The translations under genes and the position numbers were made by a program. DNA of 17,802 nucleotides. Source: a virus. Its lineage: Duplodnaviria; Heunggongvirae; Uroviricota; Caudoviricetes. Every line of letters starts with the position of its first letter. Position 1 is the stretch's first letter. The stretch is taken from the IMG/VR virus record IMGVR_UViG_2645727843_000004, one strand, 5' to 3'. Below the pieces are notes generated by a model, which worked only from the letters and a program-made list of their open reading frames with translations, did not search any database and was not told the origin of the DNA. Of the stretch, positions 1,408 through 16,150 are shown piece after piece.

Positions 1408-1643
1408 GGAGAGTGGCGCTATGTGCCATTGCATGGTGCCGGGTGCCTCCCGGTGAATTCAGTACCAGCACCTGAATCCGCGATTATCCCATATACCTGG
1501 TTGCTGATCGCCCCTCCGCACAGGGGGATTCACCATGCCAGTTTCTTTTAACAAACTCCCCGCAAACCAGACAACAGTCAACCGCCTGAATTGTGAGACA
1601 TTTAAAAAAAAGGCCCGCAAAAGCGAGCCAGGGAAAATAAGTG

Positions 1644-1921: not shown

Positions 1922-2635
1922 TCAATAATCAAGCCCTTGCCTGGATACATATCTGTCTGGCGGGAAGCCATAATAGCGGTGAAATACAGAAATAAAGTAG
2001 GACCAGCTTGAATAACCGCATTTTTCTGCTACAGCCTGTCCATATCCATGCCGGGAACATAACATATTGACAGCAACACGCATCCGCTCTTCCAGCAACA
2101 AGCGACTGAACATGTGCCCTTCATTTTTCAGTTTTATCTTTAACAAACTCTCACTCATATGCAGGCGTAACGCAATCGCACCAAGCGTCCAGCTTGCTGA
2201 TATATCTGTCTGAATTATCGCCCTGACTTTGGCACTTATACTGGATAAACATCCACTTAAAAATAATAATATCCGTTCATCTGATTCAAACAGCGACAGG
2301 CATGCCATCATAAGAAACATATCCGTGGTATCTCCGGAAAATCTCTGGCTGGTAATTAAAGCCTCAGCCAACGCAGGGTTGTTGGGTTCCAGTGACAGAT
2401 AAAGCGGAACGTCAGTCAGATGAGTTCTTGTCAGCTTATGCTGAATTTCCAGATATTGACTTACTATGGAATGGTTTATATCGAAAATTTTAACTTTGCC
2501 ATAATGCATAAGGAAAAGCGCCCTGATGCATTTGGTGGCCAGAACGACTGAGCCGGGCTTAAGTGACAACGTATCCTTTTCAAGAAAAATATTAATTGGG
2601 GAGCAAACCATGATAACTGAACAGACAACAACCAT
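1922..2635 (-). CDS. AraC/XylS-family transcriptional regulator (prophage cargo)
   Basis: 237-aa ORF with a C-terminal AraC-type HTH (…LLEERMRVAVNMLCSRHGYGQAVAEKCGYSSWSYFISVFHRYYGFPPDRY). Sits between Q and the tRNA cluster with its own upstream terminator. Confidence 0.8.
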   Translation of the reverse strand: MVVVCSVIMVCSPINIFLEKDTLSLKPGSVVLATKCIRALFLMHYGKVKIFDINHSIVSQYLEIQHKLTRTHLTDVPLYLSLEPNNPALAEALITSQRFSGDTTDMFLMMACLSLFESDERILLFLSGCLSSISAKVRAIIQTDISASWTLGAIALRLHMSESLLKIKLKNEGHMFSRLLLEERMRVAVNMLCSRHGYGQAVAEKCGYSSWSYFISVFHRYYGFPPDRYVSRQGLDY

Positions 2636-2762
2636 TATAATTTTACTTTCATTAGCAATTGGTTAGTTCAATTATAGCCCCAAAAGGTAAATTATCATCA
2701 ACACATAAGCAAAGGACTGACAGGTGCCGCTAACACCCACCAGCCGCCCATTTACCACAAAT

Positions 2763-2786
2763 AAAAAAGCCTTCAGGACTGAAGGC
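2763..2786 (-). terminator. Intrinsic terminator after the small wHTH gene
   Basis: Hairpin GCCTTCAGGACTGAAGGC (2769-2786) with the U-run on the minus strand (plus A6 at 2763-2768); overlaps the stop codon of the 2773-2970 ORF. Confidence 0.5.
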
Positions 2787-2970
2787 GTCTGTAACAACCG
2801 AACTGATAATCTGCCAGACCCGCCATAACAAGCTGGGTCAGTATTAACTGGCAGCGTTCGCGTGAAAGATAAGTGTTCTGCGCAATTTCCTCGACGGTCG
2901 CCGGTTCGGTGACGCTTAATTCATTAAACACCACTCTGGCGGTTTCGGTCATATCCTGCTGTTTTAGCAT
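2773..2970 (-). CDS. Small (about 65 aa) putative winged-helix DNA-binding protein
   Basis: Internal ATG at 2970 preceded by AAGG. Translation MLKQQDMTETARVVFNELSVTEPATVEEIAQNTYLSRERCQLILTQLVMAGLADY... Bracketed by terminator hairpins on both sides, so likely an independent transcription unit. The ORF track extends it to 3093. Confidence 0.45.
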   Translation of the reverse strand: MLKQQDMTETARVVFNELSVTEPATVEEIAQNTYLSRERCQLILTQLVMAGLADYQFGCYRRLQS

Positions 2971-3093
2971 GCCTTTTTCCCTTTTCCGGTTAACGTGACA
3001 CACCAATAACTCTTGTCGAAAAAGCCAGCAAGCTGAAAGAACGGTATTAATAACCACCAGCGAATTTATTGCGCTGCTGTATATTACGGACAC

Positions 3094-3114
3094 AAAAAAA
3101 CCACCTTCCGGTGG
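3094..3114 (-). terminator. tR-prime-like intrinsic terminator about 100 nt downstream of the Q-like gene
   Basis: CCACC-TTCC-GGTGG hairpin (3101-3114) followed on the minus strand by U7 (plus A7 at 3094-3100). A second hairpin GCGAAA...TTTCGC (3124-3144) lies just upstream. Confidence 0.5.
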
Positions 3115-3211: not shown

Positions 3212-3754
3212 TTATCGAAATGAATCGTGCATAGGTACATAAAGCATGTGTTCAGCCACGGCTAACCAACCTGCAATACGTTTCTCACATGTGCTGAAAC
3301 ACCATTCCGGGTGAGTACGATTTAAACATTCTGCCATTTTTCTCTTACTCATTCCCCGTCCTTCGTACCTTTGCCGGAGAATATTGATTAGCCCGGGATA
3401 TTCCCCAAGCACCTCACTGATAACGCGATCAATAATCAACGCCTCTGTGTCTGTACAATGTGACAACCAGCTCTTCTGCTTCCCTCTGGTCATATCCCGA
3501 AAAAATGCCTCAAGTTCCGGTTTTTCCAGCCCGGATTTCTTCATGCTGCGTAAAACCTCATTAACTGCTGTTTTCGTCAGCCTTTTCGAAACCAGTAACC
3601 GGTTAAACATATTTCCGGATTTACCCCCACCGATATACGACCACCGCCCCCACATCCGTAATTTCCCCTGGATCCAGACTGCTTCCAGCGTGTTCAGGCG
3701 TAAATGTTCGCCGCTTTTGCCTGTAATTTCCGGATATATCATATTTACGCTCAC
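3212..3754 (-). CDS. Putative late-gene antiterminator Q-like protein
   Basis: 180-aa ORF directly after rusA (GTGA overlap with the rusA stop; alternative ATG at 3742) and directly before a terminator hairpin and the tRNA cluster. Assignment is mainly positional; sequence family not verified. Confidence 0.5.
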   Translation of the reverse strand: MSVNMIYPEITGKSGEHLRLNTLEAVWIQGKLRMWGRWSYIGGGKSGNMFNRLLVSKRLTKTAVNEVLRSMKKSGLEKPELEAFFRDMTRGKQKSWLSHCTDTEALIIDRVISEVLGEYPGLINILRQRYEGRGMSKRKMAECLNRTHPEWCFSTCEKRIAGWLAVAEHMLYVPMHDSFR

Positions 3755-4110
3755 TCACTCTCAATTTTGTAAATCTTCACACCCAGCCGTCCACCAGATA
3801 CTGGCTGACCACGTACAATATTGATTTCATCAAACTGCTCGTCATCAATGAGCACTCCCGCATGCGTCAGCGCATCCAGCGGTGCTTTCAGAATATTGTC
3901 CAGGTCACGACGACGCTTATCCGGTGGCTCTGCAATAATTTTTATTGCCAGCCGTCCGGACAGGCTTAATTTCAGTCGCTGCTGGCGAACAATAAGCGCC
4001 ACTGCCCGGCGATAACGCTCCCCGGCTTTTGATACAAAATATGTGCTGCCACGGCGTCGCCAGTAAGTGTTCACCGTCGGCGGGTAAGGTAAAACCAAAT
4101 CTATGAGCAT
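3751..4110 (-). CDS. rusA: Holliday-junction resolvase RusA
   Basis: 119 aa with the conserved RusA pattern (P.PP..N.Y...., PDKRRRDLDNILKAPLDALTHAGVLIDDEQ, GGRL), which aligns by eye with E. coli RusA. SD AGAGGTGA precedes the ATG at 4110. Confidence 0.9.
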   Translation of the reverse strand: MLIDLVLPYPPTVNTYWRRRGSTYFVSKAGERYRRAVALIVRQQRLKLSLSGRLAIKIIAEPPDKRRRDLDNILKAPLDALTHAGVLIDDEQFDEINIVRGQPVSGGRLGVKIYKIESE

Positions 4111-4122
4111 CAGTCACCTCTT

Positions 4123-5172
4123 TTACCCGAGCACGCCAGTCGCAAAGGCGTGATCAAGAAAACGAAAAATTAACTCAATCTGAGAGCCGTACTTTTTCTC
4201 AAACTCCAGCGGGTCTGCATGAAGTTCGTTGTGGTGCTCCCGGCACAACGGTAACGTGAAAATATCGTGGGCCTTTGTCCCCATTCCCCCCTGACCATGA
4301 CCAATCAGGTGATGCGGATCGTCAGCAGGCTTACCACAACACGCACACGGCTGTGTCTTTACCCAGCGCGTGTATTTCTCGTTAACCCAGCGGCGACGTT
4401 TAGGTCGTTTCATGAAAGATTCCGGAGACTCAGGATCAACGGCAATGCTGACCACCGTCTTTTCCTGTGGTGGGTTCTGTTGCTGGTGGGCGTGAGGCAG
4501 CGGCGCAAGATTTTTTGTGCGCTGTTTCAGTATGCTGGTGGCGGTCTGCTCTCCCGGCACGATGTCGCTTTCACGGTACATTGAGCGGATTTTTTCCGCA
4601 CGCAACCCCAGCGAACGACGTAATACCGCTTCCGGTAGCGCGTCCGCCACCTGATTGCGGACCGCCCACCAGGATAATTCAGCCAGAGATAATTCACGCT
4701 CCTGCGTACCGCTTATTGCGTGACCGATGACGTCAATCATCCAGGCTGTCAGATTTTGTTGAGCAAGCTGCCCGAGTGATTCGGATGTCTGGTCGCGCAG
4801 CTGGTTGTCGCAGTGCCAGCACAACACCATTGCGCCGGTACCATAACGGTGAATGACGGTTTCGCTGTGATGATAATCGCCGTGTGGCCACTGGCAGGAT
4901 TTAATATAGCGCAACAGCCAGTCAGACAATGCACCAGCACCACCAGCAGCACGAATCACCCGTGCGTTACTGAAAAACGGCAGCAATGTTTTGTCTTCCA
5001 CTAGCGGCTGGCGAACGGCAGGAACAACCCCGGACGGCAGATTACGCATGCTTTTCGGTTCCGGCTCCACCAGTACCCGGGTATTGTGGAATACCGGCAT
5101 GGATTCACGGCCCGGCTTAACGATCACCAGCCCGAGTTCCGGTACCAGAACAGGTCGAAGTAATACCCGCAC
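4123..5172 (-). CDS. DUF968-like prophage protein with a C-terminal HNH-like Cys/His motif
   Basis: 349 aa with a GTG start preceded by GGAGGT. C-terminus CACCGKPADDPHHLIGHGQGGMGTKAHDIFTLPLCREHHNELH. Sits in the nin-region position upstream of rusA. Confidence 0.65.
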   Translation of the reverse strand: MRVLLRPVLVPELGLVIVKPGRESMPVFHNTRVLVEPEPKSMRNLPSGVVPAVRQPLVEDKTLLPFFSNARVIRAAGGAGALSDWLLRYIKSCQWPHGDYHHSETVIHRYGTGAMVLCWHCDNQLRDQTSESLGQLAQQNLTAWMIDVIGHAISGTQERELSLAELSWWAVRNQVADALPEAVLRRSLGLRAEKIRSMYRESDIVPGEQTATSILKQRTKNLAPLPHAHQQQNPPQEKTVVSIAVDPESPESFMKRPKRRRWVNEKYTRWVKTQPCACCGKPADDPHHLIGHGQGGMGTKAHDIFTLPLCREHHNELHADPLEFEKKYGSQIELIFRFLDHAFATGVLG

Positions 5173-5518: not shown

Positions 5519-5546
5519 TTGTCGTCAACAGGCAACGTGCTATCAT
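5519..5546 (+). promoter_or_regulatory. Candidate sigma70 promoter for parDE
   Basis: TTGTCG (5519-5524), 16-nt spacer, TATCAT (5541-5546), then SD GAGG and ATG at 5582. Motif match only. Confidence 0.3.
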
Positions 5547-5581
5547 CGAATGGTGTTCTATCCTACTCCGTGAGGTTTACC

Positions 5582-5839
5582 ATGCGTACAACCCAACAAT
5601 TCAGCATTACATTAACTAACGAAATGGCTGACATGGTGCGCGCCCGTGTGGCTTCCGGTGCCTATGCTTCAGAAAGCGAGGTCATTCGTGAAGGGCTTCG
5701 CGCACTGAATGAGCGCGATAAAGCAATCGAAGCGTGGTTAACGCATTCAGCCGCCCCCTCTCTTGATTCTATCCGCGAAAACCCAAACAACGGACGCTCC
5801 ATTTCACAGGTTCGCGCCGCGATTCGATCCGGGAAGTAA
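5582..5839 (+). CDS. parD: ParD-type ribbon-helix-helix antitoxin
   Basis: 85 aa: MRTTQQFSITLTNEMADMVRARVASGAYASESEVIREGLRALNERDKAIEAWL... (ParD/COG3609-like). SD GAGG upstream; followed 5 nt later by the toxin gene. Confidence 0.8.
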   Translation: MRTTQQFSITLTNEMADMVRARVASGAYASESEVIREGLRALNERDKAIEAWLTHSAAPSLDSIRENPNNGRSISQVRAAIRSGK

Positions 5840-5844
5840 TCTGC

Positions 5845-6144
5845 ATGACATATGAAGTCATCATTACTCCTGAGGCCGAACAACAAATAATCAACCTGCA
5901 CAGGTATATAGCGGAGAAAGCAGGGAACGTCATTGCTGACAATTATGCCAATGCGCTTCTTGATTATCTTGATGGGTTTTCTACATTCCCGCATCGGGGC
6001 AATAAACGCGATGATATTCGCCAGGGGATGCGGGTAACTCATTTCCGCCACAGAACGATTATTGCTTTTGCCGTTGATAGCAGAAAAGTCTTTATTGTCG
6101 GTATCTATCATGGTGGGCAAAGTTATGAAACCGATTTCTTATAA
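5845..6144 (+). CDS. parE: ParE/RelE-superfamily toxin
   Basis: 99 aa: MTYEVIITPEAEQQIINLHRYIAEKAGNVIADNYANALLDYLDGFSTFPHRGNKRDDIRQGMRVTHFRHRTIIAFAVDSRKVFIVGIYHGG; classic antitoxin-toxin order and size. Confidence 0.8.
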   Translation: MTYEVIITPEAEQQIINLHRYIAEKAGNVIADNYANALLDYLDGFSTFPHRGNKRDDIRQGMRVTHFRHRTIIAFAVDSRKVFIVGIYHGGQSYETDFL

Positions 6145-6269: not shown

Positions 6270-6353
6270 TTATCCCCAGCGGCAAATCGAATACACCACC
6301 AGCGCCACCGCCATCGCAATTCCTACCGTTGTGAATGCTTCAGGCCAGGTCAT
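6270..6353 (-). CDS. Candidate 27-aa hydrophobic peptide, translationally coupled to the upstream gene
   Basis: ATGA overlap with the stop of the 6350-6694 gene; GGAGG nine nt upstream. Translation [27 protein letters not shown] (one predicted TM helix). Below the ORF-track length cutoff. Confidence 0.3.
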
Positions 6354-6694
6354 CGTAAAATATCCTCCACGCTTATCAGTCCGTTCCGCTCCAGATAACT
6401 CATCGCCTTATCCGGTAATTTGCAGTCTGGCTTCGCTTTCCTCAGTTGCCAGGTTAACTGCTTTACCAGCATGGTTAACTCATCGACCAGACGCTGATAT
6501 CCCACTGGTTTGTATTCATGCAATTTACCGGCTGGCTCTGCTGCCAGCGATACCAGTGCGATTTCCAGAACAGCAATATCCATCTTATATGTGCGGATGA
6601 TGTCATGGTCGATTGTGCCCGGTATGCACAGTCTCTGTGCTTCAATAGTCTCCTCTGCGTGAGCTATTAACTGCTCTCTGGTAAAAGTCGTCAT
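6350..6694 (-). CDS. Hypothetical protein (114 aa)
   Basis: ORF in the minus-strand operon; ATGA overlap with the upstream HNH gene remnant. Confidence 0.55.
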
Positions 6695-6859: not shown

Positions 6860-8054
<1,195 letters not shown>

Positions 8055-16092: not shown

Positions 16093-16150
16093 TTCTGGTG
16101 ACATTTGGCGGTATCAGTTTTACTCCGTGACTGCTCTGCCGCCCTTTTTT
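16093..16150 (+). ncRNA. dicF: DicF-like small RNA (ftsZ-targeting sRNA of the dicB operon)
   Basis: TTCTGGTGACATTTGGCGGTATCAGTTTTACTCCGTGACTGCTCTGCCGCCCTTTTTT closely matches my recollection of E. coli DicF, including the GGCGG...CCGCC terminator stem and T-tract; it sits just upstream of dicB, as in Qin. Confidence 0.7.

Follow-up and report, generated by a model that had tools for sequence, protein, structure and literature searches.

The DNA described here is a stretch of 17,802 nucleotides (nt) from a virus of the class Caudoviricetes (IMGVR_UViG_2645727843_000004), hereafter the window, in which the early and late regions of a lambdoid prophage meet; it is read on the minus strand. At this junction, a DUF968 gene, a RusA gene and the gene for a Q-like late antiterminator are followed by a small open reading frame (ORF) for a protein of 65 amino acids (aa), a gene for a regulator of the AraC family, a cluster of transfer RNAs (tRNAs) and the N-terminal part of a nanS-p esterase gene that runs off the window start. 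Intrinsic terminators lie behind the Q-like gene and at the end of the small ORF. A sequence-only reading of this DNA had noted the Q-like gene, the terminators, the small ORF, the AraC gene and the tRNAs, and we found every one of them on the minus strand where that reading had placed it (Table 1). It had also proposed that the two genes behind Q could form a host-directed pair of regulators. We arrive at a different account, which we consider very likely as a whole: the AraC-family gene is the known regulator gene psrA, carried in a cassette with a promoter-like site of its own that replaced a DNA methyltransferase gene, and the 65-aa gene is a separate and older component.

The AraC-family protein passes the Pfam thresholds of both HTH_18 (36.6 bits, cut-off 33.6; residues 155-230) and HTH_AraC (35.3 bits, cut-off 26.6), and spans positions 10-253 of the 254 in phrog_1450. 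In a direct comparison, it was identical at 237/237 residues to the ECs1087 reading frame in prophage Sp4 of E. coli O157:H7 Sakai, and likewise at 237/237 residues to WP_000261909.1 from prophage CP-933M at the yccA site of EDL933. Exactly this sequence is found in 10,180 blocks of a public assembly index. The AraC protein of O island (OI) 57 in EDL933 (WP_000301797.1; CP008957 1,905,274-1,905,987), which lies where PsrB is expected and which we take to be PsrB/Z2104, shares 215 of the 237 residues (90.7%). More distant is the AraC protein of CP-933H, presumably PatE, with 37% identity over 235 aa and a collinear alignment that starts at residue 1. The best NCBIfam profiles are those of two host regulators, YdeO, matched over positions 1-230 of 253 with 104 bits against an equivalog cut-off of 348, and GadX, matched over the DNA-binding half with 88 bits against a cut-off of 500. 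The closest solved structures are GadX, Rns, CsvR and ToxT, headed by the GadX DNA-binding domain (E=1.5e-18, PDB). Because the protein is collinear with the CP-933H protein from its first residue and fills the YdeO profile from position 1 to 230, it is full length, and not the truncated remnant that the sequence-only reading had named as fatal to its proposal. The psr alleles show a ratio of nonsynonymous to synonymous polymorphism (pN/pS) of 0.24-0.45, indicating purifying selection.

ECs1087 of Sp4 was given the name psrA, for prophage-encoded secretion regulator, in a 2026 paper that describes it as a prophage-encoded regulator of type III secretion that activates gadE (PMC13502914). Reviews put the identity between PsrA and PsrB at 90% (PMC10877973, PMC8565820), which the 90.7% identity with the OI-57 copy fits. 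Judged by these comparisons, the gene at 1922-2635 is psrA itself. The sequence-only reading had suggested likeness to the Pat/Psr class, to be checked by similarity searches against PatE, PsrA and PsrB; the searches thus carry its proposal further than it went. In RefSeq the protein is labelled 'helix-turn-helix domain-containing protein', a name under which a characterised virulence regulator is hidden.

How the gene came to lie here is shown by the boundaries of homology between psr-type loci and loci in which a DNA methyltransferase gene follows the small ORF. Common to the two types are the small ORF with its terminator and about 85 nt more; their homology ends at about position 2699, exactly where the -35 hexamer of a promoter-like site starts. 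Homology returns at about 1912, some 20 nt ahead of tRNA-Ile2. Because the two types diverge and converge at these two points, psrA is a promoter-plus-gene cassette of about 790 bp that replaced the methylase gene between fixed flanks. A moron is defined as a gene with a promoter of its own that can be present or absent between conserved phage flanks; here the insert lies between such flanks and has a promoter-like site within it. The promoter-like site begins at 2698, at the very start of the psrA-specific DNA and 3' of both terminators; the spacer between the small-ORF stop and the AraC gene measures 137 bp. In the alignment, the site is not present in the methyltransferase-type loci, and both of its hexamers are unchanged in the five psr-type loci aligned (5/5), among them that of an inducible Shiga toxin (Stx) 2k phage, in which a single base of the spacer differs.

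This arrangement points at two modes of expression. Because the promoter-like site lies in the insert and two terminators lie upstream of it, psrA would need no Q for its transcription in the lysogen, and upon induction it would be read through within the Q-antiterminated late transcript. The published PsrA is an activator of the AraC/XylS type, and PsrA and PsrB raise the expression of GadE and YhiF (PMC10877973, PMC8565820, PMC13502914). GadE represses the type III secretion operons within the enterocyte effacement locus (LEE), which lowers secretion and raises acid resistance (PMC10877973, PMC8565820). PsrB binds directly to the gadE and hdeA promoters, and PatE activates gadE and hdeAB (PMC10877973); PsrA adds to persistence in a ruminant colonisation model (PMC10877973, PMC8565820, PMC13502914). 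By analogy with the identical protein, PsrA from the present prophage would raise GadE and YhiF, and GadE would in turn repress the LEE operons. The biology of PsrA at this locus is already known: its link to the glutamate decarboxylase (GAD) acid-resistance system and to type III secretion dates from 2011, and since the copy here is the same protein, it holds little discovery value.

Several points weigh against this account. Reviews assign PsrA to Z1789 in CP-933N (OI-50) (PMC10877973, PMC8565820), a placement that conflicts with the assemblies, as neither the resequenced CP-933N of EDL933 nor Sp6 of Sakai, the potC-site prophage, has an AraC gene after Q. Current assemblies put psrA in CP-933M/Sp4 at yccA, not in CP-933N. 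The assignment to PsrA draws on the statement of the one 2026 paper about ECs1087 in Sp4 and on the 90% identity figure. The promoter is a consensus match only; the scan that found it gave 5 sites for the region, in which chance would give 3.3. The effect on the host is carried over to the present prophage from the literature on the identical protein. Last, a search of 5,426 complete E. coli genomes found no match to the combination of a DUF1133-type Q with this PsrA allele that covers at least 80% of its length, and regulation from the upstream context could therefore differ from that in Sp4.

Some of these points would also fit a psrA that is silent cargo here, through H-NS silencing, for instance, or for want of a functional promoter, so that the host would notice nothing outside read-through on induction. 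The near-chance number of promoter matches would be expected then, as would the AT-rich, horizontally acquired nature of psrA, the dependence of its levels on an anti-silencing small RNA (sRNA) (PMC13502914) and the small effect on secretion of deleting psrB alone (review PMC10877973). We nevertheless regard silence as unlikely: the protein is identical to a copy whose deletion raised type III secretion, the alleles are under the purifying selection noted above, and the promoter hexamers have stayed the same across five loci, one of them in a viable phage.

The proposal that the AraC protein cooperates with its 65-aa winged-helix neighbour as a two-regulator module aimed at host genes has fared worse. 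Both proteins are predicted to bind DNA, and their genes adjoin on the same strand in 725 of the 5,426 complete E. coli genomes and in the Stx2k phage. By contrast, when one genome per species was scanned, 20 loci encoded the small protein. Downstream sequence was available for 19 of them, and in 19/19 the small gene was followed at a distance of about 150 nt by a homologue of an N6/N4 DNA methyltransferase (PF01555; 71-100% identical); an AraC gene followed in none of them (0/19). The methyltransferase also follows the small gene in E. coli CE10, in the Stx2e phage phiP27 and in E. albertii. Of the complete E. coli genomes, 2,159 match the region, and about two thirds of these have the small-gene part without the AraC gene. 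In prophage Sp4/CP-933M of O157:H7, where psrA has been studied, psrA is intact and the small gene carries a 1-nt deletion, being annotated as a frameshifted pseudogene or, in Sakai, as a hypothetical protein of 79 aa; the window and the copies in O145, OI-57 and phages have it intact. Between the two genes stands a terminator, and the cassette itself provides psrA with a promoter-like site. These observations make cooperation between the two proteins quite improbable, and the 65-aa protein is not the partner of PsrA. Rather, psrA is a cassette standing in place of a phage DNA methyltransferase, and the 65-aa gene a component of the older unit, left behind once the cassette had replaced the methyltransferase.

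In Stx phages with this layout, either an AraC gene or a DNA methyltransferase gene fills the slot from the small ORF to the tRNAs. The phage phiSTEC1575-Stx2k has Q, small ORF, a Psr homologue (88.8% identical), tRNAs and stx2k in this order, and phiP27 has Q, small ORF, methylase, tRNAs and stx2e. Because stx lies 3' of the tRNAs in both phages, the toxin slot is the next one, after the tRNAs. The sequence-only reading, which had described the psrA position as the place where Stx phages carry their toxin genes, was right about the location between Q and the tRNAs and slightly off about the toxin. This setting invites the thought that PsrA primarily serves the phage life cycle, such as the adjacent tRNAs, the late genes or superinfection, with its host effects secondary. 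The gene would indeed be part of the Q-dependent late transcript, it adjoins phage tRNAs and occupies the slot of a phage methyltransferase, and inducible phages such as phiSTEC1575-Stx2k have homologues, as do, at 37-40% identity, lambda-like phages. Yet we found no link between Psr proteins and phage functions in the present analysis; its nearest relatives outside phages are YdeO and GadX, which regulate acid resistance in the host, the published targets are host promoters, and psrA is kept in cryptic, defective prophages such as Sp4/CP-933M. A primary role in the phage is very improbable.

The sequence-only reading had described the small protein as winged-helix-like with a terminator of its own, and this description held. 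An AlphaFold2 model, with a predicted local distance difference test (pLDDT) score of 88.4, predicts three helices (residues 4-16, 26-33 and 37-49) followed by a beta-hairpin wing (strands 53-56 and 59-62), that is, a winged helix-turn-helix fold. Foldseek places the model among the winged-helix domains of IclR, MarR/OhrR, SelB and Z-alpha, with query TM-scores (TMq) of 0.7-0.8 and, for IclR and MarR regulators, up to 0.81; those of O-methyltransferases are matched as well. The protein belongs to phrog_331 (E=3e-37), a family common in lambdoid phages whose members have no assigned function. We found 326 homologues of 63-65 aa in Escherichia, Shigella, Salmonella, Klebsiella, Citrobacter, Buttiauxella, Cedecea and other genera, which share the invariant core SRERCQLILTQLVxAGL. 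RefSeq calls them 'TrmB family transcriptional regulator' or 'hypothetical protein'. The match to Pfam TrmB (PF01978) is below threshold (18.4 bits, cut-off 25.6; E=0.0019), and no NCBIfam profile matches at E<=0.01. That the ORF is part of a conserved RNA leader instead of a protein gene is scarcely credible, for although the flanking non-coding DNA is conserved as much as the ORF or more and no Pfam or NCBIfam match is significant, most pairs have pN/pS values of 0.03-0.29 and differ by many synonymous changes, the genera preserve length and frame at identities as low as 66%, and the model is confident and the phrog_331 match strong. From its sequence evolution and its predicted fold, the small ORF is a real protein-coding gene.

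Other identities for the small ORF were considered and rejected. A 106-aa form starting from GTG at 3093 is at odds with a 2-nt indel in the leader of the Stx2k phage and with the homologues, which begin at ATG. The fold is a winged helix and not the five-helix helix-turn-helix of the Xre type, which speaks against a controller (C) protein of a restriction-modification system; the C-boxes of such a system should also lie upstream, and the palindromic element here lies downstream of the small gene. No restriction endonuclease gene stands beside the methyltransferase, either in the homology comparison of the 20 loci or in the RefSeq annotation of CE10 and phiP27. A role in a defence system was likewise rejected, as the psrA protein has no match in PADLOC and the small protein has only a weak one (E=8e-4), to part of a model with 509 positions.

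The small gene is embedded in conserved non-coding DNA. Its terminator overlaps the stop codon, which lies in the loop, and the stem, 94% paired over 18 loci, shows one compensatory change, from CG (14 loci) to UA (4). Between this terminator and the psrA cassette, whose left flank it marks, lies an element composed of the 21-mer AATGGGCGGCTGGTGGGTGTT and a 12-bp hairpin (arms 2734-2745 and 2715-2726), also written GGCTGGTGGGTG...CCAGCC. In other phages, the element sits between the small ORF and the methyltransferase. The 21-mer is invariant in 17 of 18 loci from many genera of Enterobacterales, the column identity of the element exceeds that of the neighbouring coding sequence (0.89 against 0.82), and the outer stem of the hairpin is 99% paired in the 18 loci. 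Compared with CE10, the 3' arm in the window has C-to-T changes, after which the sense strand could still pair through G.U; in these few sequences, the changes hint, weakly, at a role at the RNA level. A leader-peptide reading of ATGGGCGGCTGGTGGGTG (MGGWWV...) was not favoured, since the frame ends vary by genus and the nucleotides are invariant. Upstream of the small gene, the leader between the Q terminator and the ORF is conserved whatever the type of Q, with the invariant motifs CTTG and AGAGnT and a column identity of 0.78 just ahead of the ATG. The leader is taken as non-coding because of the 2-nt indel in the Stx2k phage, and a scan of it for a sigma-70 promoter pattern gave no match. 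The hairpin and T-run behind Q recur in the same place in the 18 aligned loci, in which the stem sequences and the Q types differ. Rfam returned nothing meaningful for the conserved non-coding stretches at E<=1.

These features allow a tentative proposal, which we hold as possible and not as probable: the 65-aa gene, the AATGGGCGGCTGGTGGGTGTT/hairpin element and the N6/N4 methyltransferase may form a conserved, so far undescribed three-part unit where the late region starts in lambdoid phages of Enterobacterales, in which the protein or the hairpin would control the methylase; psrA would have been swapped into this unit, and the leftovers, the small protein and a half-decayed hairpin, might affect psrA in strains with an intact small gene, such as the present one. 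With low confidence, the normal job of the small protein would concern the methyltransferase or the intervening hairpin element, and not PsrA or host genes. The hairpin element and the 65-aa protein are common and uncharacterised, and pose a small question in lambdoid phage biology. What is new in the present analysis is modest: the origin of psrA by a cassette swap, the partnership of the 65-aa gene with the methylase, the unnamed hairpin element and the location in Sp4/CP-933M.

Table 1. Features at the psrA locus of the window, and positions of two features in comparison loci (numbered in those loci).
Feature	Positions	Strand	Basis or remark
DUF968 gene	4123-5172	minus	first in order, ahead of RusA
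RusA gene	3751-4110	minus	between the DUF968 and Q-like genes
Q-like late antiterminator gene, DUF1133 type	3212-3754	minus	Pfam DUF1133 365.5 bits, Phage_antitermQ 35 bits
Intrinsic terminator 3' of Q (tR'-like)	3094-3114	minus	hairpin CCACC-GGAA-GGTGG then T7; pattern scan
Conserved leader, tR' to small ORF	2971-3093	minus	alignments
65-aa winged-helix gene (from ATG)	2773-2970	minus	phrog_331
Intrinsic terminator of the small ORF	2763-2786	minus	GCCTTCAGTCCTGAAGGC + T6; pattern scan
Conserved non-coding element with hairpin	2701-2752	minus	column identity, stem pairing
Promoter-like site for psrA	2671-2698	minus	ATGATA, 16 nt, TATAAT; 10/12 matches
psrA, AraC/XylS-family regulator, 237 aa	1922-2635	minus	237/237 identity with the ECs1087 frame
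psrA cassette (moron)	1913-2699	minus	alignment junctions with methyltransferase-type loci
tRNA cluster, ileZ-argN-argO type (right flank of cassette)	1644-1893	minus	ARAGORN, Rfam tRNA
tRNA-Ile2 (CAT)	1818-1893	minus	ARAGORN
tRNA-Arg TCG	1734-1810	minus	ARAGORN
tRNA-Arg TCT	1644-1720	minus	ARAGORN
sRNA STnc100-like region	1377-1567	minus	Rfam 138.7 bits, gathering score 47; between tRNAs and nanS-p
Frameshifted small gene, L017 (CP-933M)	20674-20870
Frameshifted small gene, L005	20874-21070
Frameshifted small gene, L042 (Sakai Sp4)	6343-6582		ECs_1086
TerB/DUF3927 comparison, locus L001	4073-4668
TerB/DUF3927 comparison, locus L006	26438-27033

Around these features, the Q-like protein also matches phrog_753, 'anti-termination protein Q-like' (E=9e-74, PHROG profile search). 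In Sakai, the tRNA cluster after ECs1087 that is equivalent to the one in the window carries the names ileZ1/argN1/argO1. The interval between the tRNAs and nanS-p has been described as a 'moron site' with convergent prophage sRNAs (Tree et al. 2014, PMC4104026). About 15 nt 3' of the last tRNA-Arg lies a terminator-like hairpin (GGCTCGC-TTTT-GCGGGCC + T8; 1612-1629, minus strand), which on the opposite strand could serve a convergent sRNA. In the same interval, the relatives in O145:H28 and in OI-57 of EDL933 hold a stretch of about 690 bp with TerB-family and DUF3927 genes that is missing from the window (about 1500-1643). The window stops within nanS-p; in Sp4 and OI-57, a pch gene and effector loci come after it.

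Farther into the prophage, Rfam matches a DicF antisense RNA on the plus strand (16093-16144; 77 bits, gathering score 48), an RNA to be expected in an early region of the Qin/Rac type. A ParD antitoxin/ParE toxin pair, above the Pfam cut-offs, runs against the direction of the phage genes around it (plus strand, 5519-5839 and 5845-6144), and a DDE transposase gene (DDE_Tnp_1 and DUF772; 7006-7986, minus strand) lies within the early region.

Among known systems, YdeO and GadX, the AraC/XylS-type regulators of the host, act on the same regulon and give the best NCBIfam profiles; the scores fall far below the equivalog cut-offs, and PsrA is a distinct phage-borne branch relative to them. PatE (Z0321, OI-8/CP-933H) is, like PsrA, a prophage-borne AraC/XylS-type protein and collinear over its full length, yet only 37% identical, and its gene is found where a P2-like remnant ends, close to tail-fibre and invertase genes, and not downstream of Q. 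The small protein has relatives of 94-98% identity in phiP27 (L23), SfV, 1720a-02 and Stx2a phages, all encoded in the same place after the terminator of Q. These phages differ from the window in having the methyltransferase 3' of the small gene, from which the Stx2k phage is excepted.

The PsrB locus in OI-57 has the same order as the window, namely DUF968, RusA, DUF1133-type Q, 65-aa ORF, AraC gene and tRNAs, and the published pathway of PsrB, activation of gadE and hdeA, is shared with PsrA. PsrB differs from the window protein by 22 amino-acid changes spread over both domains, and in OI-57 the tRNAs are followed by the TerB and DUF3927 genes that are missing from the window. The PsrA locus of Sp4/CP-933M resembles the window in its small ORF upstream and in the tRNA-Ile2, tRNA-Arg and tRNA-Arg genes downstream, with nanS-p after them. 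It differs in its frameshifted small ORF and upstream, where a Q of the PF06530 type and a CPBP protease gene are found, whereas in the window a DUF1133-type Q directly precedes, as at the PsrB locus. Compared as a whole, at most 69% of the window is held in one place by the best of the 5,426 complete E. coli genomes searched, and the prophage is a mosaic, as such not represented among them, of an O145/OI-57-like Q segment and an O157 Sp4-like psrA allele. From the terminator of the small ORF to the start of psrA, both promoter-like hexamers included, the Sp4/CP-933M locus is identical to the window.

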